From Alphaproteobacteria bacterium (GTDB lineage Bacteria; Pseudomonadota; Alphaproteobacteria; UBA2966): a stretch of DNA of 64,000 bases. Below the pieces are notes generated by a model. That model saw only the letters and a program-made list of their open reading frames with translations. It had not been told where the DNA came from and made no database searches. The stretch's first letter is position 1; each line of letters starts with the position of its first letter. Made by a program: the position numbers and the translations under genes. This document shows positions 52,517-62,752 of the stretch, one piece after another. The stretch lies in NCBI GenBank assembly GCA_964291395.2, contig OZ219856.1:2400001-2464000 (forward strand). Reading direction: 5' to 3'.

Positions 52517-53353
52517 ATGCACAAGCCATCTTCAAGATCTTCGAAATCGAACGAACGTTCGAAGCGTCTGAAATCGCGCCGAAAATCGCATCCGCCAAGC
52601 CGGGAGAACAAGAGTCGAACGGTGTGGCTATACGGGCATCATGCCGTCATGGCCGCGCTCCGGAATCCATCCCGGATCTGTAACGAGCTCTTGCTGACGC
52701 CGGAGGCCTCCGCGCGGTTGTCGGAAACCCTGAATTCGCTGCCTAAGGGTCGGATTCCACCGACGCATGTGGTCAGGGCGACGGACATCGAGGCCGTATT
52801 GTCGCAAGGTGCCGTGCACCAAGGTATCGCCCTCAAGGCCGAACGGCTGCCCGGAGTCACGTTGGAGGAAGCCTGCGTCCCGCGGGACGACGACCGCAAC
52901 GTGGTCGTCGTCTTGGATCACGTCACCGATCCCCGGAACGTGGGTGCGGTGCTGCGCTCCGCCGCGGCGTTCGGTGCCCGTGCCTTGCTGGTCACTGAGC
53001 CGCACGCGCCGGTCGAGAGCGGCAGTCTAGCTAAAGCCGCCTCCGGAGCATTGGATACTCTCCCTTACGTTCGGGTAGCCAATCTCGCTCGCGCGCTGGA
53101 TCGGCTCGCCGGACTGGGATACTGGCGGATCGGCCTCGCCGCCGGGGCGGACTCATCGCTGTCCGAGACGGATCTTTCGGACCATGTCGTACTCGTGCTC
53201 GGCGCGGAGGGCAGTGGTCTTCGGCGGCTCACGGCGGAGAAGTGCGACCAGCTCGCGCGCCTACCGACGCGGGCCGGCTTCCCGGACCTCAACGTATCAA
53301 ACGCCGCCGCGGTGGCTTTGTACGAGGTGACGCGAAGCCTCACCGCACGGTAG
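52517..53353 (+). CDS. rlmB: 23S rRNA (Gm2251) methyltransferase, SpoU family
   Basis: LYGHHAV, HQGIAL, LDHVTDPRNVGA, LGAEGSG, LNVSNAAAV. Confidence 0.92.
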   Translation: MHKPSSRSSKSNERSKRLKSRRKSHPPSRENKSRTVWLYGHHAVMAALRNPSRICNELLLTPEASARLSETLNSLPKGRIPPTHVVRATDIEAVLSQGAVHQGIALKAERLPGVTLEEACVPRDDDRNVVVVLDHVTDPRNVGAVLRSAAAFGARALLVTEPHAPVESGSLAKAASGALDTLPYVRVANLARALDRLAGLGYWRIGLAAGADSSLSETDLSDHVVLVLGAEGSGLRRLTAEKCDQLARLPTRAGFPDLNVSNAAAVALYEVTRSLTAR

Positions 53354-53360
53354 CGGCTCT

Positions 53361-54755
53361 CTATTCCGCCGCCTGGAGAGTTCGGCCGTCGAGATCGTCG
53401 AGCCGGGACCGGACGTGCACGTCGCGCCGATGGCTCGGCAACTCGTCGGCCTCCATCATGACCGCCAGGACCTTGCGGCCATACTCCGTCACCAATTCGG
53501 CGTCGTCCTTGCCAGGCCGCATCGGAACGTGGAGCACCGAGTCCTGGGTATACATGTGCAGCGTGTCCTTACCGCCAGCGCTGACGGCCCGCGACGTGTC
53601 CGGCCCGGTCTCGCCGCGCACCAGACCGCGCAGCAGCTTGCGGCAGAGATAGACTCCGATATCGGAGCGTCCCGGGTTCTCAAGTGCATGAACGGCGATG
53701 GACCGCTGGCTGGTCAGAGCTTCCCAGTCGCCGGGCGCGCGCTGACCCTCGCCGTAGGGCCGCTCGCACTGGCCCACGAGGAAATCGATCTTGTCGTAAC
53801 CGCAATCCTCTTCGCAACCGTCGTGGTCGGGGTCGACTTCGTCGTTGAAGTGACGCCAGCCGAACATGATCATGTGCGTGTTGTCGACAGGCACGTGCCA
53901 GCGCGACAAGCACATGGTCGAATGCCGTTCGCGCCGGGCGGACGGGAACAACGACCCGATCTGCAGGAAGTTCGGGAACACCATCTCCGTGATGCGAACC
54001 CAAATGGTCTGCTGATCGGGATTGCGCCGGTTGGCGATGAACACGCAGCCGTTCCCGTTGCGGACCGACTCCCAGTCCATGACCGGCATGTCGTTGAATC
54101 CGTCGAGGTTGAGTCCGCTTTTCATGGCGTCGTCGACGCTGTCAACCGTCATGTTCGTGTGCAGCAGGGCCGTATGCATATGGTCCATGATGTTCTCGTA
54201 GACCTGCAGCCAGTTGCACGGATAGATGTTGGAGAACGGCACATATTTGGTCCCCTCCGGCAGATGGAAGCCGTCGTACTCGGGGAAGTCGGGTTTCTCC
54301 TCCGGCGGGCCCATGTAGGCGAACACCAGACCGTGACGCTCGAACGCGGGGTAGGCGCCGTGCACCACCGTGTCGTAGATCTTGCTGTCCTCGGGCTCGG
54401 CCGGCATCTCGAGGATGGTGCCATCGACGTCGTAGACCCAGCCGTGATAGCAGCAGCGGATGCCCCGGGGCTGGATAATGCCGTATTCCAACGAGGTACC
54501 GCGATGGCTGCAGTGCCGCTGAAGCATGCCAATCCGTCCCGAGCGGTCACGGAAGGCGACGAGGTCCTCGCCCATGATGCGGATGGCCTTAGGTACATCG
54601 GTCAGTTCTTCCGACAAGCAGACCGGCTGCCAGAACTTGCGCATCAGATCGCCCATCGGCGTGCCCGGCTGCGTCTCCGTCAGTTCGGGATCATGCGGGG
54701 GAATTTCCCGCTGATGGTAGGCGCCATAGGGCATTTTCCTTTTGCCGCTGCTCAT
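53361..54755 (-). CDS. Rieske non-heme iron oxygenase (phthalate dioxygenase/LigX-like), paralog A
   Basis: GTPMGDLMRKFWQP, CSHRG...CCYHGW Rieske motif, ENIMDHMHTALLH iron motif. Confidence 0.92.
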   Translation of the reverse strand: MSSGKRKMPYGAYHQREIPPHDPELTETQPGTPMGDLMRKFWQPVCLSEELTDVPKAIRIMGEDLVAFRDRSGRIGMLQRHCSHRGTSLEYGIIQPRGIRCCYHGWVYDVDGTILEMPAEPEDSKIYDTVVHGAYPAFERHGLVFAYMGPPEEKPDFPEYDGFHLPEGTKYVPFSNIYPCNWLQVYENIMDHMHTALLHTNMTVDSVDDAMKSGLNLDGFNDMPVMDWESVRNGNGCVFIANRRNPDQQTIWVRITEMVFPNFLQIGSLFPSARRERHSTMCLSRWHVPVDNTHMIMFGWRHFNDEVDPDHDGCEEDCGYDKIDFLVGQCERPYGEGQRAPGDWEALTSQRSIAVHALENPGRSDIGVYLCRKLLRGLVRGETGPDTSRAVSAGGKDTLHMYTQDSVLHVPMRPGKDDAELVTEYGRKVLAVMMEADELPSHRRDVHVRSRLDDLDGRTLQAAE

Positions 54756-54790
54756 TTCCCAGGGCCTCCTTCCACGGATCGGTTGCCTCC

Positions 54791-54819
54791 ATTTTACCAA
54801 GCTCGAATTCGGGGTTCAA
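54791..54819 (-). promoter_or_regulatory. Candidate internal promoter for Rieske paralog A
   Basis: TTGAAC-N17-TAAAAT with TG extended -10. Confidence 0.5.
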
Positions 54820-54844
54820 AATAGCACCCGAGACCATAGGCCCG

Positions 54845-56323
54845 TCAGGTGCCCGGAACTTCGGCGAGCTTCGGTGTCTCGCCGGGTGCCGGCGTGTAGG
54901 GGTAATTGCCGCGGGACAGCACGGCCTCGAGCCCGCCAAGCGACTCGATACGTGCCTCCTGATCGGCGAAAGCCCGGACGTTCGCAGTATCCGGATCGAC
55001 GACGGCGCGCAATCGCCGGTCGCAATCGGCCACGACGTCCGCATGGTCGGGGTCCGTACCGAGATCGTAGGCCTCGAACGGGTCCGCCTCCAAGTCGAAT
55101 AGTTGCGGTTCGTAACCCGCGTAATGGACATACTTCCACTTTCCGACGCGGATCATGAAGCAGCCGGTGATCGATGTCGCCGCATGGTATTCCACGAGTG
55201 GTGTCCGTTCCGGAACCAAACCTGCGGCGGCATCGAACAGCGAGTGACCAGGCAGTTCGGTCTTTTCCTCCACCGTGGGTTCCTCCCCCACCGCGGCGAT
55301 GGCGGTCGGGTAGATGTCGACCAGGGTCACAGGGTCGGATGCGGTGTGTCCTTCCGGGATATCGGGGCCGGCCATGATCAACGGCACACCGGCGCTCTCT
55401 TCATACATGACAGCCTTGCCCCACAACGTACGTGCGCCGAGGTTATCGCCATGGTCGCTGGTATAGATCACCCTCGTTGAGTCGTTCAGGCCAGTGGCCT
55501 CCAGGGACGTCAGGATCTGACCGATGTTGCCGTCGAGGAACGAGACCATGCCGTAGTAAGCGGCGATGGCCATACGCCGGTGGTCGTCATTGCGGAAGAA
55601 ATCGTCGTAGTTCTGGATTCGCCGGATGGCGTCCAGCACCGGATGCCGGGGCCGCGCCTTCGGCTCGCGCTGAACGGGCCAGGGCATGTCCTCGGGCGCG
55701 TACATGTCGAAGAACTCGTCGGGCGCCACCAAGGGAAAGTGTGGGCAGACGAGCGAGACGAACAGCACCCAGGGTTTGTCCGTGTACTTCGGCGCCTCCT
55801 CCGACAGCCAGCGACAGGCCTCCGCCGTGATGGCCCGGTCGTACTTGGTGTAGGTCGATTCTCCACGGCCCACTTCCTCGGCCAGCAGGCGTACGTTGGG
55901 CCGTTCGACCGGCGGGCTTCGCATCAGGCCGATCGCATCACCGATACCGTCGAGCACATGCATCGGCATAATTTCCTCGTCGAACCCGTTCGGGTCGTTC
56001 GTATCCCGGTAGTGCAGCTTGCCGATCGAGGTCACGCGGTGGCCGCTGGCCATCAACCGGTGACCCCAGCTAGGCACCCGGCCGTCGTAGGGATGCCCGT
56101 TGTCCCAGTAGCGGATCTGGTGGACGTAACGTCCTGTGGCCAACGCCGCCCGCGCCGGCACGCAGATGGGGCAGTTCGTGTAGGCATCGGTGAACCGGGT
56201 GCCCCGCGCCGCCAGCGCATCCATGTTCGGCGTCTTCACGGTCTCGTTGCCATGACAGCCGAGCACGCGCCGATTGTGCTCGTCCGACATGATGATGAGC
56301 AGATTGGTCGGCTGCATCTCCAC
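54845..56323 (-). CDS. Cys-type sulfatase (choline-sulfatase-like), cytoplasmic
   Basis: NLLIIMSDEH, CVPAR (CxPxR), GKLH, YTSDHG; no signal peptide. Confidence 0.92.
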   Translation of the reverse strand: MEMQPTNLLIIMSDEHNRRVLGCHGNETVKTPNMDALAARGTRFTDAYTNCPICVPARAALATGRYVHQIRYWDNGHPYDGRVPSWGHRLMASGHRVTSIGKLHYRDTNDPNGFDEEIMPMHVLDGIGDAIGLMRSPPVERPNVRLLAEEVGRGESTYTKYDRAITAEACRWLSEEAPKYTDKPWVLFVSLVCPHFPLVAPDEFFDMYAPEDMPWPVQREPKARPRHPVLDAIRRIQNYDDFFRNDDHRRMAIAAYYGMVSFLDGNIGQILTSLEATGLNDSTRVIYTSDHGDNLGARTLWGKAVMYEESAGVPLIMAGPDIPEGHTASDPVTLVDIYPTAIAAVGEEPTVEEKTELPGHSLFDAAAGLVPERTPLVEYHAATSITGCFMIRVGKWKYVHYAGYEPQLFDLEADPFEAYDLGTDPDHADVVADCDRRLRAVVDPDTANVRAFADQEARIESLGGLEAVLSRGNYPYTPAPGETPKLAEVPGT

Positions 56324-56353
56324 GGCTCCGCCGCCCGGGCTGCTGGTCCGCAG

Positions 56354-57568
56354 CTACTCCGCCGCTGACCGGATCGCCTTCCCGGCGATCTTGAGATATC
56401 CGTCCCGGGTTTGCGGCACCTTCATGCCGAGGATGGATCCCGCCACCTGGGTGCGCAGGATCTGGGCCGTGCCGCCGCCGATGGTGAACATGCGTGCATC
56501 ACGAAGCATGCGCTCGAGCGGCAGGTTTCTCGAATAGCCGGCAGCGCCGTGGAGTTGCAGTGCATCGTTCGTGACCTTGATCGCCGTCTCCGAAGCGAGG
56601 ATTTTGGCTTGTGCCGCCTCGCACATATCCGGAAAGCCGCCACCTGCGTTCCGCGCCGCTTTGTGGAGCAGGGCACGCGATGCCTCGAGTCCGATGGACA
56701 TATCCGCGAGCATCCATTGCAGGCCTTGGAATTCCGCGATGGGCCGGCCGAACTGATGCCGCTCCTTGACGTAGTTCAAGGCCTGCTCGTAGGCACCCTG
56801 GGCGATACCGAGCGCCATGGTGCCGGCGCCGACACGTTGGCCGTTATAGGCGTTCATCAGGCCGGCGAAGCCCCGGCGCAGGCCTTCCGGCGGGATGACC
56901 ACCATGTCCTCGGCGACTTCCATGTCTTCGAAGACGATCTCCGCCTCCGGGATACCCCGCAAGCCCAGAGTGGGCTCGCGGCGTGGAATTGAGAGACCCG
57001 GAGTCTCGTCGCGCACCGCGATGAATCCTGCAATGCCCTGCGATTGTCCCCTCTCCATGACCCGGGCGAAGACCAAGTGCAGCTTGGAGACACCGCCACC
57101 GGTGATCCAATGCTTCTTCCCATTGATGATGTAACGGTCGCCTTTCTTGACCGCGGTCGTGGTCATCTCGGTGGCGGCGCTGCCCGCGCCCGGCTCGGTG
57201 ATGCAGATGGCCGGCTTGTCCCCGGCGAGGACGATCCCGGCAGCCATCATCTTCTGATTCTCGCTGCCGTATTTCATGATCGCTCCGATGGCGCCCATGT
57301 TGGACTCGACGACGATGCGCCCCGTCACCCCGCAAACCCGCGCCATTTCCTCGATGACGAGAACTGCGTCGAAGTATGTCCTGCCCCTCCCCCCGTATTC
57401 CGGTGGGATGGTCATGCCCATGAAGCCGGCTTTCGTCAGCCGCTCGACGTGATCCCAGGGATATTCTTGAGTCTCGTCGATCTCCGCCGCACGCGGCTGG
57501 ATCTCGGTCTCGGCCAGCTCCCGGGCCCTCGCCTTGAGATCCTGCTCCGCTTTGCTCAGGCTGCTCAT
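56354..57568 (-). CDS. acdA: 3-sulfinopropionyl-CoA desulfinase-like (acyl-CoA dehydrogenase fold)
   Basis: EYPWD, GRIVVESNMGAIGAI, LAGDKPAICITEP, WITGGGVSKLHL, AYNGQRVGAG, MFTIGGGTAQILRTQVA, PQTRDGYLK match my recollection of Advenella AcdDPN7; lacks the IYEGT catalytic Glu. Confidence 0.82.
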   Translation of the reverse strand: MSSLSKAEQDLKARARELAETEIQPRAAEIDETQEYPWDHVERLTKAGFMGMTIPPEYGGRGRTYFDAVLVIEEMARVCGVTGRIVVESNMGAIGAIMKYGSENQKMMAAGIVLAGDKPAICITEPGAGSAATEMTTTAVKKGDRYIINGKKHWITGGGVSKLHLVFARVMERGQSQGIAGFIAVRDETPGLSIPRREPTLGLRGIPEAEIVFEDMEVAEDMVVIPPEGLRRGFAGLMNAYNGQRVGAGTMALGIAQGAYEQALNYVKERHQFGRPIAEFQGLQWMLADMSIGLEASRALLHKAARNAGGGFPDMCEAAQAKILASETAIKVTNDALQLHGAAGYSRNLPLERMLRDARMFTIGGGTAQILRTQVAGSILGMKVPQTRDGYLKIAGKAIRSAAE

Positions 57569-57637
57569 GCGCATAGCTCCCATGGTATCCCACACCGGGC
57601 TACCCGTGACGACCTCAAGATCAATTCGCAGACGGGG

Positions 57638-59038
57638 CTATTCCGCGGCTTCCCGCATGCCACCGTCGAGTTCATCGAGCCGCACCAGGATGTAGCGCCG
57701 ACGCTCCTTCGAGGGTAGCGGATCGGCATCCGCCACGATGTCGTAGACCTTGCGGCCATACTCCTTCATCAGCTTGCGGTCTTTCTCGCGGTCCGGCAGG
57801 CGCGGCACGCGCAGCGTGGTATCGGACCCGAAGGAGTGCAGTGTCTGCTCACCGTCCTCGCTCATGCCCATGGTCGTATCGGGCGGCGTCTTGCCCTCCA
57901 CGAGATCGCGCAGCAGCTTGCGGCACATGTAGACGCCGATGTCGGAGCTGCCGGGGTTCTCCAAGGCATGCACGGCGATCGGCCGCTGGCTGGTGATCGC
58001 GTCCCAGTCTCCGGGCGCCCGCTGGCCGATCTCGTAGGGGCGCTCGCACTGGCCATCGAGGAAGTCGATCTTGTCGTAGCCGCAGCCGTCCTCGCACCCG
58101 TCGCCGTGCAGGTCGATCTCGGCGTTGAAGTGCCGCCAGCCGAAGAGGATGCAGTTGGTGTCGTCTACCGGCGTGTGCCAGCGAGTCATGCAGACCGTTG
58201 TATGCCGCTGTTCGTGGGCGCTGGTCATCAGGTTCGCGTTCTGGATGAGGTCGGGGAAGATCATCTCCGTCATGCGGATCCAGATGGTGTTGTCGTCGAC
58301 GCGTCGCCCGGCAATGAACGTGATGCCGTGGCCGTTGCGCGTCTGCTCCCAGTCCATCACCGGAATGTCCTGGAACATGGCGGGGAAGTTGAGGCCGTCC
58401 TTCATGGCGGCATCGACGCTGTCGACGGTCATGTCGTTGTGCAGCAGCGCCGTGTGGCAGTGGTCCATGATGTTCTCGTAGACCTGCAGCCAGTTGCAGG
58501 GATAGATGTTCGAGAACGCCACGAGCTTGTTGTCCTCGGGGAAGCGGTAGACGTCGTAGTCGGGGAATTCCGGCTTCTCCTCGGGTGGTCCCATGTAGGC
58601 GAACACCAGCCCGTCGCGCTCGAACGCCGGATAGGCCCCGTGATAGACGGTCTCGGAGATCCTGCTGTCCTCGGGCTCCGCCGGCATCTCGAGGATGGTG
58701 CCGTCGATGTCGTAGACCCAGCCGTGGTAGCAGCAGCGGATGCCCTTGGGCTGGATGATGCCGTACTCGAGCGACGTGCCGCGGTGGCTGCAGTGGCGCT
58801 GCAGGACGCCGACGCGGCCCGAGCGGTCGCGGAAGGCGACGAGGTCCTCGCCCAAGATACGGATGGCCTTCGGAACATCCGTCAGTTCCTCCGACAAACA
58901 GACCGGGTGCCAGTGCTTGCGCATGAGCTCACCCATCGGCGTACCCGGACCCGTGCTGGTGAGCAGCGGGTCGGACTCCGGCGCGGCCGTCTTGTGATAG
59001 GCGCCGTAAGGGATTTGGGGGATCTTGACAACGGACAT
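57638..59038 (-). CDS. Rieske non-heme iron oxygenase, paralog B
   Basis: GTPMGELMRKHWHP, CSHRG...CCYHGW, ENIMDHCHTALLH. Confidence 0.92.
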   Translation of the reverse strand: MSVVKIPQIPYGAYHKTAAPESDPLLTSTGPGTPMGELMRKHWHPVCLSEELTDVPKAIRILGEDLVAFRDRSGRVGVLQRHCSHRGTSLEYGIIQPKGIRCCYHGWVYDIDGTILEMPAEPEDSRISETVYHGAYPAFERDGLVFAYMGPPEEKPEFPDYDVYRFPEDNKLVAFSNIYPCNWLQVYENIMDHCHTALLHNDMTVDSVDAAMKDGLNFPAMFQDIPVMDWEQTRNGHGITFIAGRRVDDNTIWIRMTEMIFPDLIQNANLMTSAHEQRHTTVCMTRWHTPVDDTNCILFGWRHFNAEIDLHGDGCEDGCGYDKIDFLDGQCERPYEIGQRAPGDWDAITSQRPIAVHALENPGSSDIGVYMCRKLLRDLVEGKTPPDTTMGMSEDGEQTLHSFGSDTTLRVPRLPDREKDRKLMKEYGRKVYDIVADADPLPSKERRRYILVRLDELDGGMREAAE

Positions 59039-59068: not shown

Positions 59069-59096
59069 ATTCTACTGATCGGCCGGATGTTGTGAA
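59069..59096 (-). promoter_or_regulatory. Candidate promoter for Rieske B-acdA-sulfatase unit
   Basis: TTCACA-N16-TAGAAT. Confidence 0.4.
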
Positions 59097-59204: not shown

Positions 59205-59279
59205 GCCGGATTAGCTCAGTGGTAGAGCAGCTGATTTGTAATCAGCAGGCCGGCGGTTCGAATCCGCCATCCGGCTCCA
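59205..59279 (+). tRNA. tRNA-Thr (TGT)
   Basis: GCCGGATTAGCTCAGTGGTAGAGC, GCTGA-TTTGTAA-TCAGC, GGTTCGAATCC, CCA end, 75 nt. Confidence 0.96.
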
Positions 59280-59552: not shown

Positions 59553-61250
59553 GTGCGCGCCATCCCGATGACGAAAACCCAATCGACCGGCTCCAGGGAC
59601 TCCTCACCCGAATTCGTCGACGTTCTGGTCGTCGGCATGGGTTTCGCCGGGATGTACATCCTCTATTGCCTGCGCGAGCGCGGCCTTACGGCGCGCGCCT
59701 TCGAAGCCGGCGGCGACGTCGGCGGCACCTGGTACTGGAACCGCTATCCCGGGTGCCGCGTCGACGTCGACAGCGTGCAGTACAGCTACAACTTCTCCGA
59801 GGAGCTCACCCGGGAGTGGCAGTGGACCGAGAAGTTCGCCTCCCAGCCAGAGCTTCTGCGCTACGCCATTCACGTCGCCGACCGCTTCGATCTGCGCCGT
59901 GACGCGAAGTTCGACACGCGCGTCATCTCCGCCGAGTTTGACGAGGAGACGAACTTTTGGACGCTAAGGACCGACAAGGGGGACGTCGCCTCGGCTCCCT
60001 ACTGCATCATGGCCACCGGCAGCCTGTCGACGCCGTACAAGCCCCCCTTCCCCGGGATCGAGGATTTCCGTGGCGAGTGGTATCACACCGGCACGTGGCC
60101 GCACGAAGAGGTCGACCTCAGCAGCAAGCGAGTGGGCATAATCGGCACGGGGTCGACGGGGATTCAAGCCATCCCGGTCGTCGCCGCGGAAGCCGAGCAC
60201 CTGACGGTATTCCAGCGGACGCCGCAGTACACCACGCCGGCCCGCAACCGGCCGATGGCTCCCGGTGAACAAGGCGAATTCAACGCGCACCGCACCGAAT
60301 GGCACGACGAAGTCCGGAACACCTTTTCCGCCATGACGGGCTTCCCCATGCCCACCAGGACCATTCACGAAGACACACCAGAAGAACGCCGAACCTATCT
60401 CGAGAAGCGCTGGGAAGAGGGGGGCATGCCCCAGGCCATGCTGGCGGCCTACAAGGACGTCAGGGTCGACGTCGAGGCCAACACCGCCGTGGCGGACTTC
60501 GTGCGCGGCAAGATCCGCGACATCGTCAAGGACCCAGAAGTCGCGGGACGGCTCTGTCCGCCGAGGGACCTGCCGATCGGCTCCAAGCGCCCGCCCATCG
60601 ACACGGACTATTACGAGACCTTCAACCGCGACAACGTCGCCCTGGTCGACATCAAGCGCGCGCCCATCGAGCGCGTGACGGCGGGCGGCATCAAGACCGC
60701 GACCGCCGAGTACGAGCTCGACGCCATCATCTTCGCGACCGGCTTCGACGCCATGACCGGATCGCTGCTCGCGATCGACATCCGGACCAGTCGTGGCGCC
60801 TCTCTGAAGGACGCATGGTCGGACGGGCCGGATACCTATCTCGGCCTGATGGTGGCGGGCCTGCCCAACCTGTTCATGATCAACGGGCCGGGAAGTCCAT
60901 CGGTCAAGGCGAACATGATCATCACCATAGAGCACCACGCCGACTGGATCCTGGACTTGATCGATCACCTCGCCGCGGAAGATTTCAACCGGGTCGAGGC
61001 AACGGAACGAGCCCAGACCGACTGGGTCGAGCACGCCCGCGAAGTCGCGGAGGCGACCCTGATGCCGGTCGCTGATTCCTGGTATGTCGGCGCCAACGTG
61101 CCGGGCAAGAAGAGGGTGTATATGCCCTACTTCGGTGGCTTCGACAGATACCGGAAGCTCTGCGACGAGATCGCCGCCGACGGCTATCGCGGCTTTGTCC
61201 TCTCGCGGGCGGAGACCACCGACACGGCCTCCAGCGCCGCCGCGGAGTAG
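59553..61250 (+). CDS. Type I Baeyer-Villiger monooxygenase
   Basis: GMGFAG, GGTWYWNRYPG, FRGEWYHTGTWP (FxGxxxHxxxWP), GTGSTG, ATGFD. Confidence 0.95.
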   Translation: MRAIPMTKTQSTGSRDSSPEFVDVLVVGMGFAGMYILYCLRERGLTARAFEAGGDVGGTWYWNRYPGCRVDVDSVQYSYNFSEELTREWQWTEKFASQPELLRYAIHVADRFDLRRDAKFDTRVISAEFDEETNFWTLRTDKGDVASAPYCIMATGSLSTPYKPPFPGIEDFRGEWYHTGTWPHEEVDLSSKRVGIIGTGSTGIQAIPVVAAEAEHLTVFQRTPQYTTPARNRPMAPGEQGEFNAHRTEWHDEVRNTFSAMTGFPMPTRTIHEDTPEERRTYLEKRWEEGGMPQAMLAAYKDVRVDVEANTAVADFVRGKIRDIVKDPEVAGRLCPPRDLPIGSKRPPIDTDYYETFNRDNVALVDIKRAPIERVTAGGIKTATAEYELDAIIFATGFDAMTGSLLAIDIRTSRGASLKDAWSDGPDTYLGLMVAGLPNLFMINGPGSPSVKANMIITIEHHADWILDLIDHLAAEDFNRVEATERAQTDWVEHAREVAEATLMPVADSWYVGANVPGKKRVYMPYFGGFDRYRKLCDEIAADGYRGFVLSRAETTDTASSAAAE

Positions 61251-61265: not shown

Positions 61266-61706
61266 TTAGCGCTCCCCCTTGCACACCCCATAGGCCACGA
61301 AGATCGGGTCGCCGCCCCTGCGGGCGGCATAGCCGAATGTGGCCGTGCGCACGTATCTTCCGCTGATGGTGTTGAACGAGAGCTGCCGGAAATCACCCTC
61401 GCACTGCCACAACGCCGGCTCACCGTCATGGTAGGGGATGCGGCACCGGTAGGTCGTGGTGACGGCATCGAACATCGAGACGCCCTTGATCTTCTGCGTG
61501 ACCGTCCCGGTCTGCCAGTCCGTCTCCAGCGTGAAAGTGGCCTTCGGGAGGTCGGCGGCCGCGTAGACGCCGGTCCGCCCCTCGAAACCGCGAATGTCGG
61601 TATCGGCGCAAGCGTAAGTGCCGGCCAGCGCCGGCCGTGTCGCCAGCAGTCCCAAGACGACAGCGACAATGGTGGAAGACTTGCTCACCACAGGCGGCCG
61701 CTTCAT
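61266..61706 (-). CDS. Hypothetical secreted protein (4 Cys)
   Basis: Signal-peptide-like N-terminus ending PALA; TGATG overlap with ychF stop. Confidence 0.6.
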   Translation of the reverse strand: MKRPPVVSKSSTIVAVVLGLLATRPALAGTYACADTDIRGFEGRTGVYAAADLPKATFTLETDWQTGTVTQKIKGVSMFDAVTTTYRCRIPYHDGEPALWQCEGDFRQLSFNTISGRYVRTATFGYAARRGGDPIFVAYGVCKGER

Positions 61707-62752
61707 CAAACGTTGAACAGGAAGCGGGCGACGTCGCCATCCCGCATGACGTACCGCCTGCCCTCGGAACGCAGCCTGCCCGCCTCCTTGATCGCCTTTT
61801 CCGAGCCGAATTCCCCCAGTTCGTCTACGTGATAGCATTGGGCGCGGATGAACCCGCGCTCAATGTCCGAGTGGACGGCACCGCCCGCCTCGGGCGCCGT
61901 GGCGCCCTGGCGGATGATCCACGAACGCACCTCCTTGTCGTTCGCCGTGTAGAACGTCGTCAGCCCAAGAGACTCGTTGAGGGCCCGGGCCAGCGGTCCG
62001 ACGGCAGGCTCCTCCAGCCCCATGGACGCCAGCATCTCGGCCCGCTCATCCTCCGGCAGCTCCGCGATCTCGCTTTCCAGCGCCGCGCAGAGAACCACCA
62101 TGATTCCACCGTCCTCGGCCACGGCCTCCCGAAGCGCCCGGACCGGCGCCCCGCCCCCCCGGAGGTCGTTCTCCGCGACGTTGGCAACGACCAGCCCGGG
62201 TTTAGCCGACAGCAATCCGTAACCCCGCATGGCCCGTTCCTCCGCCGCGCTCCAGTCGCCCGCCGAAACCGGTTGCTCCGCCTCCACGAGGGCCAGCGCC
62301 TTTTCCAACGTATCCCGCCGACGCCCGGCCTCCTCGTCGCCGCCCCGGGCCGCTTTCCGCGCCCGTTCCAGTGAGCTCTCGATGACGCCGAGGTCCGAGA
62401 GAACGAGTTCCAGCTTGAGGTTCGAATAAGCGGACACCGGATCGGCCTTTTCGTCGAAGCAATCGATCACGTGGCAGAGCGCGGCCACCGCTCGGACATG
62501 GGCCAGGATCGCGACATGACCGGCGCCGACACCCGCCGGGATGCCCGGCATGTCGACCAGCTCCAGACGGGCCGGCACGATCCTCCTGGTCGGCACAGAC
62601 CGGGCGATCTCGCGCAGACGCGGATCGGGAATGTCGGCCTGGCCGATGTTGGGGTTGAGGGTGCCGGTCGCGACCGCCACGGTGTGCGCCGTGAGCGCCT
62701 GGAACAGGCACGTCTTCCCGCTTCCCGGAAGTCCGACGATCCCGCATTCCAT
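61706..62752 (-). CDS. ychF: YchF/OLA1-family ATPase, divergent
   Basis: GIVGLPGSGKT, PDPRL, DMPG, NVAE, HSDIERGFIRA, EGRRYVMRDGDV TGS domain. Confidence 0.85.
   Translation of the reverse strand: MECGIVGLPGSGKTCLFQALTAHTVAVATGTLNPNIGQADIPDPRLREIARSVPTRRIVPARLELVDMPGIPAGVGAGHVAILAHVRAVAALCHVIDCFDEKADPVSAYSNLKLELVLSDLGVIESSLERARKAARGGDEEAGRRRDTLEKALALVEAEQPVSAGDWSAAEERAMRGYGLLSAKPGLVVANVAENDLRGGGAPVRALREAVAEDGGIMVVLCAALESEIAELPEDERAEMLASMGLEEPAVGPLARALNESLGLTTFYTANDKEVRSWIIRQGATAPEAGGAVHSDIERGFIRAQCYHVDELGEFGSEKAIKEAGRLRSEGRRYVMRDGDVARFLFNV

Follow-up and report, generated by a model that had tools for sequence, protein, structure and literature searches.

We analyzed a window of 64,000 nucleotides (the whole stretch, from contig OZ219856.1 of an alphaproteobacterial genome), in which a Rieske oxygenase (Rieske B), a 3-sulfinopropionyl-CoA desulfinase of the AcdA/AcdDPN7 family, a sulfatase and a second Rieske oxygenase (Rieske A) are encoded side by side between rlmB and a tRNA-Thr gene. 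The original prediction had described these genes as a candidate undescribed organosulfur catabolic module. Sequence comparison solidly places the protein with an acyl-CoA dehydrogenase (ACAD) fold in the true 3-sulfinopropionyl-CoA desulfinase family. For the cluster as a whole, we give about an even chance to a thematically linked organosulfur island, probably comprising two transcription units, which is a trimmed version of a genus-specific, rearranging, rlmB-anchored island. The bacterium is an uncultured marine alphaproteobacterium, probably associated with sponges.

Four co-oriented genes and their products

Open reading frame (ORF) calls bore out the predicted arrangement of four co-oriented genes, all on the minus strand. 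Rieske B (57638-59038, 466 aa), by Pfam and by its place in clade B of our tree the alpha (oxygenase) subunit of a phthalate-family Rieske non-heme iron oxygenase, is followed by the desulfinase (56354-57568, 404 aa, or 413 aa from an alternative start at 57595), the sulfatase (54845-56323, 492 aa) and Rieske A (53361-54755), a paralog of Rieske B. Rieske A has 464 aa when read from the ATG at 54755, which has AGGAGG 9 nt ahead of it, or 457 aa from a start at 54734, and its ORF extends to 54800 at its longest. The genes are separated by 69, 30 and 89 nt, and the last distance becomes 110 nt with the start at 54734. The Pfam domains over the four proteins are, in order, Rieske plus LigXa_C, three ACAD domains, Sulfatase, and again Rieske plus LigXa_C. 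The GC content at third codon positions (GC3) was 0.81 to 0.90 in the minus-strand genes versus 0.61 in the overlapping plus-strand shadow ORFs, which marks the minus-strand frames as the true genes. The GC3 of the desulfinase gene (0.81) was similar to that of its neighbors, and the composition profile across the cluster had no foreign-DNA signature, with an even GC content of 0.60 to 0.67.

The desulfinase scored 679.1 bits on the NCBIfam equivalog model NF042439 (3-sulfinopropanoyl-CoA desulfinase; cut-off, 600), and the runner-up model, acryloyl-CoA reductase, gave 336 bits against a cut-off of 640. It aligned to the structure 5AF7 across residues 4-397 with an E value of 1.6e-156. The protein reads TIGGGT where dehydrogenases have ...YEGT, and its Gly365 aligned to the catalytic Glu of butyryl-CoA dehydrogenase (5OL2) and to a Gly of 5AF7. 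R84 (TGRI), C122 (PAIC) and Q244 (NGQR; Gln246 in 5AF7 numbering) are identical to the 5AF7 residues. We take Arg84, Cys122 and Gln246 to be the functional residues of AcdDPN7. The loss of the catalytic Glu and the retention of Arg, Cys and Gln, both claimed in the original prediction, were thus reproduced by alignment to the two structures. All 76 full-length relatives from metagenomes have R, C, Q and G at the four diagnostic columns of the alignment. None of 12 paralogous ACADs from the window's own genome does, and seven of these have Glu in the catalytic column. Among 15 ACAD-like matches in that genome, the window protein is the sole copy above the NF042439 cut-off, the other 14 falling below it. 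The protein is therefore of the predicted AcdDPN7 type and not an ordinary ACAD. The available part of a study of the family also reports that the catalytic Glu is absent from it (PMC9293079).

The sulfatase matched PF00884 with 131.6 bits (E value, 4.7e-38). The domain begins at residue 7, leaving no room for a signal peptide, and the C-x-P-x-R maturation motif is present as CVPAR. Three matches to the formylglycine-generating enzyme (FGE; PF03781) were found elsewhere in the genome. The best family was choline sulfatase (TIGR03417), at 282.8 bits and below its cut-off of 433.45, and the best structures were also choline sulfatases (6FNY; E value, 2e-59). The Choline_sulf_C domain (PF12411) was not found in the protein by Pfam. 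An assignment to BetC itself was ruled out by the sub-cut-off TIGR03417 score and the missing Choline_sulf_C domain; the protein is a predicted cytoplasmic cousin of BetC, a choline-sulfatase-like S1 sulfatase of the formylglycine type.

Rieske A and Rieske B are 69% identical. PF00355 was found in both, in Rieske B with an E value of 6.1e-18 and together with LigXa_C. The CxPxR sulfatase and the two Rieske oxygenases named in the original prediction are all present, as are all the motifs it quoted. The cluster motif CSHRG...CCYHGW and the mononuclear iron motif of Rieske oxygenases (ENIMDHCHTALLH / ENIMDHMHTALLH) are legible in the proteins, the latter reading E-x3-D-x2-H-x4-H in Rieske B. 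The closest solved relatives were the phthalate-dioxygenase-like structures 7FJL/7FHR (E value, 5e-51), which align to residues 22-263 only. No named NCBIfam equivalog came near its cut-off for either protein: the best, 4beta-methylsterol monooxygenase, gave 47 and 54 bits (cut-off, 600), and the GbcA model gave 22.3 and 20.1 bits (cut-off, 670). A cluster look-up with Rieske B returned only generic "ring-hydroxylating dioxygenase" clusters, and some homologs at 59-69% identity are named after MdpJ in one source.

A maximum-likelihood tree of 51 Rieske sequences, from which matches shorter than 400 residues were dropped and locus L005 was omitted as a duplicate of L085, resolved an A clade (98/94) and a B clade (100/99). 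Rieske B groups with L085_72, L006 and L011 inside the B clade. A-clade genes lie beside rlmB in the window and in L007, L008, L009 and L084, and the Comamonadaceae and Pseudonocardia homologs branch outside both clades.

The family is abundant in the 4.16-Mb genome, with 27 copies that share about 39% identity or more across at least 390 residues and 29 loci at an E value of 1e-40 or less; examples lie at C1:173356, 668169, 727627, 1322580 and 2112015 and at C3:1243734. The genome also gave 14 TauD, about eight GMC oxidoreductase, nine sulfatase-family and three Baeyer-Villiger/flavin monooxygenase (BVMO) matches. When the surroundings of the 29 Rieske loci were compared for hints of a shared substrate class, 181 of 231 neighboring proteins were unclustered, and only five clusters had at least three members. 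No reductase gene was found in the window. An FNR-type/2Fe-2S reductase gene adjoins Rieske relatives in L011, L018, L019 and L020, and a homolog in the window's own genome (C1:1321357-1322316; 47% identical to the L018 reductase) lies beside another Rieske paralog. It was the only phthalate-dioxygenase-reductase-type homolog at 38% identity or above in the genome. Since this single homolog stands beside 27 Rieske copies, one reductase may serve many of the oxygenases.

Parts of the stretch were recovered in four RNA-library runs, which come from three studies and are labeled as sponge or marine metagenomes (contigs were placed at 92% likeness or above). In run X1, each of the four genes and the BVMO gene are matched by near-identical contig pieces (0 to 4 differences). 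The junction between Rieske B and the desulfinase is spanned by X2 record 11 (57337-57695, 1 difference) and by X4 record 27 (57159-57670, 14 differences and 1 gap). Positions 54808-55108 were uncovered by contigs in all four runs, and the contigs over the Rieske A start stop at 54776, 54736 and 54728. We considered these contig ends as a sign of a separate Rieske A transcript and rejected the idea, since the ends differ and contigs cannot show transcript starts. Promoter-like sites on the minus strand occur in the gap between the sulfatase and Rieske A (54791-54819; TTGAAC-17-TAAAAT, 9/12 matches plus a TG extension) and 5' of Rieske B (59069-59096; TTCACA-16-TAGAAT, 10/12 matches). The region thus holds 2 such sites versus 1.4 expected from shuffles, and the sites, as read from sequence, are consensus matches and no more. 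A promoter-like site does lie where Rieske A was proposed to have its own promoter, but the region does not stand above the shuffles.

Islands of the genus and loci elsewhere

Four desulfinase-bearing islands were found in one genus, all beside rlmB, in a survey of gene neighborhoods whose gene calls were cross-checked with tblastn. The linkage seen in the window is thus not unique to its genome and recurs in L007/G010, L084 and L005/L177 (L and G numbers denote loci and genomes). The window island reads Rieske B, desulfinase, sulfatase, Rieske A and then rlmB. The L084 island reads Rieske, CoA-transferase, desulfinase (93% identity), sulfatase (81%), Rieske, Rieske and then rlmB, and that of L007/G010 reads BVMO, an unnamed gene, TauD, an RHA-type Rieske, a second unnamed gene, sulfatase (83%), desulfinase (88%), Rieske A (89%) and then rlmB. 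The fourth island, of about 25 kb (L005/L177 plus L185, G008), begins with Rieske B (86%), TauD, Rieske, Rieske, FA_desaturase, CoA-transferase and desulfinase (91%) and continues with Rieske, Rieske, TauD, CoA-transferase, LysR, Rieske, BVMO, ACAD, BVMO and sulfatase (84%) before rlmB. Its tally is five to six Rieske, two TauD, two CoA-transferase and two BVMO genes. The window is the most reduced version of an island with fluid order and fluid content.

Within the window's genus, the desulfinase was found in G000 (the window's own genome), G008 and G010 and was not found in G006, G007 and G009. The orthologous sulfatase (83-84%) is present in all three desulfinase-bearing genomes; in the three genomes lacking the desulfinase, only a sulfatase paralog of 53-55% identity was found. 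The association of sulfatase and desulfinase is the best-supported link of the island. A 54% sulfatase paralog of a congener (G003/G009, C1:3000434-3001903) contains one in-frame TGA.

The island is bordered by an rlmB homolog in L007, L084 and L185, as is Rieske A in L008, L009 and L012. Upstream at this locus are a Type ISP restriction enzyme gene in L008 (5973-9341) and an integrase gene in L012 (8556-9587). The rlmB-adjacent locus behaves as an insertion hot spot.

In the wider surveys the combination was seen in this genus only. Of 76 genome loci examined from a Rieske B query, two (L005 and L007) had a desulfinase with over 60% identity and three (L007, L018 and L020) a sulfatase with 50% or above. 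With the desulfinase as the query, at least 583 relatives were confirmed in metagenomes from 600 pattern matches listed, and 80 metagenome loci were kept, of which 56 have at least 1.3 kb of upstream and 50 at least 1.3 kb of downstream sequence. Two of the 80 loci (L084 and L085) carry the Rieske family and one (L084) the orthologous sulfatase. The usual neighbors were a co-oriented family III CoA-transferase gene immediately upstream (27/80; median gap, 21 nt) and an acetolactate-synthase-like thiamine pyrophosphate (TPP) enzyme directly downstream (22/80; median gap, 19 nt). LysR was present in 12 loci, TauD in 7 and MsrB in 7. No CDO-type cluster was found among the 33 annotated neighbor clusters. 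The order CoA-transferase, desulfinase, TPP enzyme, often followed by MsrB and a glutathione S-transferase gene, was seen in L091, L116, L178-L180 and 19 others and is apparently undescribed; the TPP enzyme reached 347 bits on its best NCBIfam model (cut-off, 509). All three genomes of a sister genus have this plain form, with no Rieske or sulfatase gene within about 9 kb.

Sulfatases do adjoin the desulfinase or the Rieske family in other lineages. A true BetC (636 bits, with PF12411 in L110) lies divergently beside the CoA-transferase and desulfinase genes in L102/L103 and L110. The L110 set of FA_desaturase, TauD, sulfatase, CoA-transferase and desulfinase matches the families of the G008 island, on a contig of 39% GC. 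The L102 (1740-9188) and L103 loci include a TRAP transporter, and L110 (3786-11200) includes LysR, TauD and the FA_desaturase-like gene; the L102, L103 and L110 contigs, at 39-46% GC, have no relation to the genus of the window. In two Comamonadaceae loci, L018 and L020, a Rieske homolog (57-60%) and a sulfatase homolog (53-54%) share one cluster, which looks, from its genes, like a bet-type route for a sulfate ester. These clusters (L018:4411-16656 and L020:5686-17346) contain an SsuA-like ABC transporter, aldehyde dehydrogenase, Rieske, reductase, GMC, sulfatase and a second GMC gene, with TauE in L020.

Substrate supply and competing explanations

To our knowledge, 3-sulfinopropionyl-CoA desulfinases have been studied in two Betaproteobacteria only, both degraders of synthetic polythioester precursors. 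Mdo and the activating enzyme that act before the desulfinase there had been predicted to be absent from the window, and the prediction held for the whole genome in part. PF05995 (CDO_I, the family of Mdo) had no match in the window's genome, which is 98% complete. Our sample of relatives comprised 41 genomes including the window's own; the desulfinase was over its cut-off in ten of them, and PF05995 was over its cut-off in three of those ten (G008, with an internal stop; G010, at 23.2 bits; and G036). Because a CDO-type Mdo is present in only three of the ten, a non-Mdo source of 3-sulfinopropionate is the rule in the sampled relatives and not a peculiarity of the window.

An ortholog of the Act-type CoA-transferase was likewise not found in the window's genome, where the best match is 38-40% identical; the CoA-transferases adjoining the desulfinase in other loci share 57-86% identity. 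A CoA_transf_3 gene lies directly upstream of the desulfinase in L084 and L005/L085, in the position that the 69-nt spacer between Rieske B and the desulfinase (57569-57637, minus strand) takes in the window, and the L007/G010 locus had no CoA-transferase match either. Since the sister islands in L084 and L005 hold the canonical CoA-transferase, the CoA-activation step is not different in kind but is missing from the window island. The genome has sucC, and it gave ten PF00174 (sulfite-oxidase-family) matches. In the available part of a study on Advenella, SucCD activates 3-sulfinopropionate (PMC5373536).

Among the closest known systems is the Act/SucCD-AcdA-Mdo route of Advenella mimigardefordensis DPN7 and Variovorax paradoxus TBEA6, with which the window shares an equivalog-level desulfinase and its diagnostic residues. 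The available parts of two papers describe act-acdA and MIM_c31380-31390 as CoA-transferase/desulfinase gene pairs (PMC6370202, PMC5373536), and the sister islands keep a family III CoA-transferase directly upstream of the desulfinase in the same way. The window, however, has neither an adjacent CoA-transferase nor a CDO-type dioxygenase, and L084 and L005 have the transferase only. The neighbors known from that route are Mdo, LysR and methylcitrate-cycle genes, whereas a sulfatase and Rieske oxygenases stand in the window; the substrates described for it are the xenobiotic polythioester precursors 3,3'-dithiodipropionate and 3,3'-thiodipropionate, whereas the labels here are sponge or marine.

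Choline-O-sulfate is used through the sulfatase BetC, the GMC dehydrogenase BetA, the aldehyde dehydrogenase BetB and then the Rieske system GbcAB. The window sulfatase has choline sulfatases as its best family and structures, and the L018/L020 cluster, with two BetA-like GMC genes, aldehyde dehydrogenase, Rieske and reductase, follows the same logic from ester to alcohol, aldehyde, acid and oxygenase. The window nevertheless departs from this route: its sulfatase remains at 283 bits of the 433 required and lacks Choline_sulf_C, its Rieske proteins stay at 20 to 22 bits on the GbcA model, and no GMC, aldehyde dehydrogenase or reductase gene lies in the cluster. The Rieske proteins resemble the phthalate family (phthalate dioxygenase, LigXa and the tert-butyl alcohol monooxygenase MdpJ) in their Rieske plus LigXa_C architecture, in their match to 7FJL/7FHR, in the absence of a beta subunit from the window and in the FNR-type/2Fe-2S reductase partner of their relatives; they differ in the partial alignment to solved relatives and in the roughly 27 copies in this genome.

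In the Dsz (4S) and Sfn systems, oxygenases make an organic sulfinate and a dedicated desulfinase cleaves it to sulfite. The window, with Rieske and BVMO oxygenases beside a desulfinase, may be likened to them by functional analogy only. It has no sequence relation to DszA, DszB or SfnG, its DszC-like score is 63 against a cut-off of 850, and its desulfinase needs a CoA thioester.

Under the reading that we prefer, a trimmed, thematically linked organosulfur island, the ACAD-fold enzyme would convert 3-sulfinopropionyl-CoA to sulfite and propionyl-CoA with no redox chemistry, a predicted step that is well founded by homology. The sulfatase may hydrolyze a small alkyl sulfate ester, and Rieske A and Rieske B may hydroxylate or oxidatively dealkylate small aliphatic substrates with electrons from a reductase encoded elsewhere. 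Because the family III CoA-transferase of the sister islands has no ortholog here, CoA activation of 3-sulfinopropionate would fall to SucCD or to an unlinked transferase. The sulfite would then be oxidized by a sulfite-oxidase-family molybdoenzyme of the genome. Rieske B, the desulfinase and the sulfatase probably form one transcription unit and Rieske A the other. The theme shared by both units would be the breakdown of small sulfur-bearing solutes, which does not imply a single fixed linear pathway.

Several observations weigh against this reading. The gene order is unstable: desulfinase and sulfatase trade places in L007 and are separated by 13.7 kb in G008, and the notion of the four genes as a fixed unit had to be given up. 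An A-clade Rieske gene lies beside rlmB without a desulfinase in G003/G004 (L008 and L009), as does a B-clade gene in G005 (L012), and the B-clade members in L006 and L011 are unlinked to a desulfinase. Since both clades occur without it, the Rieske proteins are independent of the desulfinase. With about 27 Rieske copies in 4.16 Mb, some adjacency to the desulfinase is expected; the four islands share ancestry and are not four independent observations; and gain or loss of one island as a block can explain the co-occurrence of sulfatase and desulfinase. Of the 80 desulfinase loci, 78 are without this Rieske family. Being assemblies, the RNA-library contigs reveal neither the strand nor whether one transcript runs through, and some may derive from carried-over DNA. 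Without Mdo and a dedicated CoA-transferase, moreover, the desulfinase may lack a substrate supply in this genome.

The instability of the locus is what would be expected if the four genes were functionally unrelated passengers of a recombination hot spot by rlmB and tRNA-Thr, placed side by side by island shuffling. The restriction enzyme and the integrase at the same locus, the tRNA gene as a boundary, the scrambled order among congeners, a genome crowded with Rieske, TauD, sulfatase-family and BVMO genes, and the mostly singleton neighbors of its Rieske loci all favor such a mosaic. Yet the desulfinase and the orthologous sulfatase share an island in all four cases despite the rearrangement; sulfatases of the same branch adjoin the desulfinase (L102/L103 and L110) or the Rieske clade (L018 and L020) in unrelated lineages; and the gaps are only 30 to 69 nt, with a bridging contig. 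We therefore regard a mere mosaic as doubtful. The same short gaps and co-orientation, together with the contigs that bridge the junction, could instead speak for one dedicated, undescribed pathway, as read in the original prediction: the Rieske pair and the sulfatase would turn a single organosulfur substrate stepwise into 3-sulfinopropionate or 3-sulfinopropionyl-CoA, on which the desulfinase would act last. Without a CDO-type Mdo in the genome, and with one in only three of ten desulfinase-bearing genomes, another source of the sulfinate is needed; in all four islands the desulfinase is flanked by Rieske paralogs, the sulfatase ortholog goes along with it, and the set of FA_desaturase, TauD, sulfatase, CoA-transferase and desulfinase recurs in the unrelated L110. 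A dedicated pathway is nevertheless unlikely, as order and content differ among congeners, both Rieske clades persist without the desulfinase, the L007 island has no B-clade Rieske, 78 of the 80 metagenome desulfinase loci are without the Rieske family and 79 without the orthologous sulfatase, and no chemically obvious single substrate requires both sulfate-ester hydrolysis and a C3 sulfinate.

An oxygenolytic entry into desulfination that is independent of Mdo is improbable in our view. Here a Rieske oxygenase, perhaps after S-oxygenation by the BVMO, would demethylate methylated C3 sulfur solutes to 3-sulfinopropionate and formaldehyde; candidates would be 3-(methylsulfonyl)propionate from methylmercaptopropionate, or dimethylsulfoxonium propionate. 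The 3-sulfinopropionate would be CoA-activated and cleaved to propionyl-CoA and sulfite, and the sulfatase would handle a sulfated solute of the same pool. If true, this would be a Dsz/Sfn-like route from sulfone to sulfinate to sulfite for compounds of the dimethylsulfoniopropionate family in a host-associated marine bacterium. The loss of the desulfinase altogether in three congeners, the missing ortholog of the L084 and L005 CoA-transferase and the absence of a detected Mdo would also fit a relic, that is, a desulfinase orphaned by CoA-transferase loss and left with no physiological role in this genome. We consider this very improbable: the gene is intact, with the four diagnostic residues and a GC3 like that of its neighbors, near-identical RNA-library contigs lie on it, L007/G010 also keeps the desulfinase at a locus without any CoA-transferase match, and the genome has sucC, SucCD being the activating enzyme reported for Advenella in the available part of PMC5373536.

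As a module, then, the prediction stood in that four islands of a single genus share the combination and fell short in that order and content differ and the Rieske clades exist without the desulfinase. No description of this gene combination turned up in the literature searched, most subscription journals being outside its reach. Literature on 3-sulfinopropionyl desulfinase in marine or Rieske contexts was not found in it, nor was any joining sponge symbionts with Rieske, sulfatase and taurine. None of the listed records was relevant to Rieske-sulfatase-choline dehydrogenase clusters, and none, judged by titles and the starts of abstracts, to 3-sulfinopropionate in marine settings. The desulfinase is common in marine metagenomes, with at least 583 relatives, mostly with a CoA-transferase and a TPP enzyme. 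A CDO-type Mdo is seldom present in the sampled relatives. In the window island, enzymes that could act upstream (sulfatase, Rieske, BVMO and TauD) are physically tied to the desulfinase in one concrete place, and the substrate, once worked out, would add a sulfite-yielding branch to organosulfur cycling in the sea and in host symbionts. For now the island offers a sound annotation and a lead that can be tested, which falls short of a demonstrated pathway.

Flanking genes

The conserved anchor of the island is an rlmB-type SpoU methyltransferase (52517-53353, plus strand; Pfam SpoU_methylase and SpoU_sub_bind), which is convergent with Rieske A and ends 7 nt from its stop codon. The tRNA-Thr (TGT) gene found by ARAGORN (59205-59279, plus strand) forms the other boundary. 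Beyond it lies the divergent BVMO gene (59553-61250, plus strand; Pfam FMO-like and Pyr_redox_3), whose membership of the island is uncertain. Its orthologs occur at 83-84% in the L007 island and as a copy at 80-81% beside the sulfatase in G008, and also at 81-82% in congeners without the desulfinase. A 190-aa ORF (61266-61838, minus strand) with no Pfam family at an E value of 1e-6 or below lies between the BVMO gene and ychF. At the BVMO start (59700-59760), contigs of all four RNA-library runs pile up on a piece of about 50 nt with many loose ends and joints. This pile-up most likely reflects a conserved FAD-binding motif from genes of other organisms and not BVMO expression.

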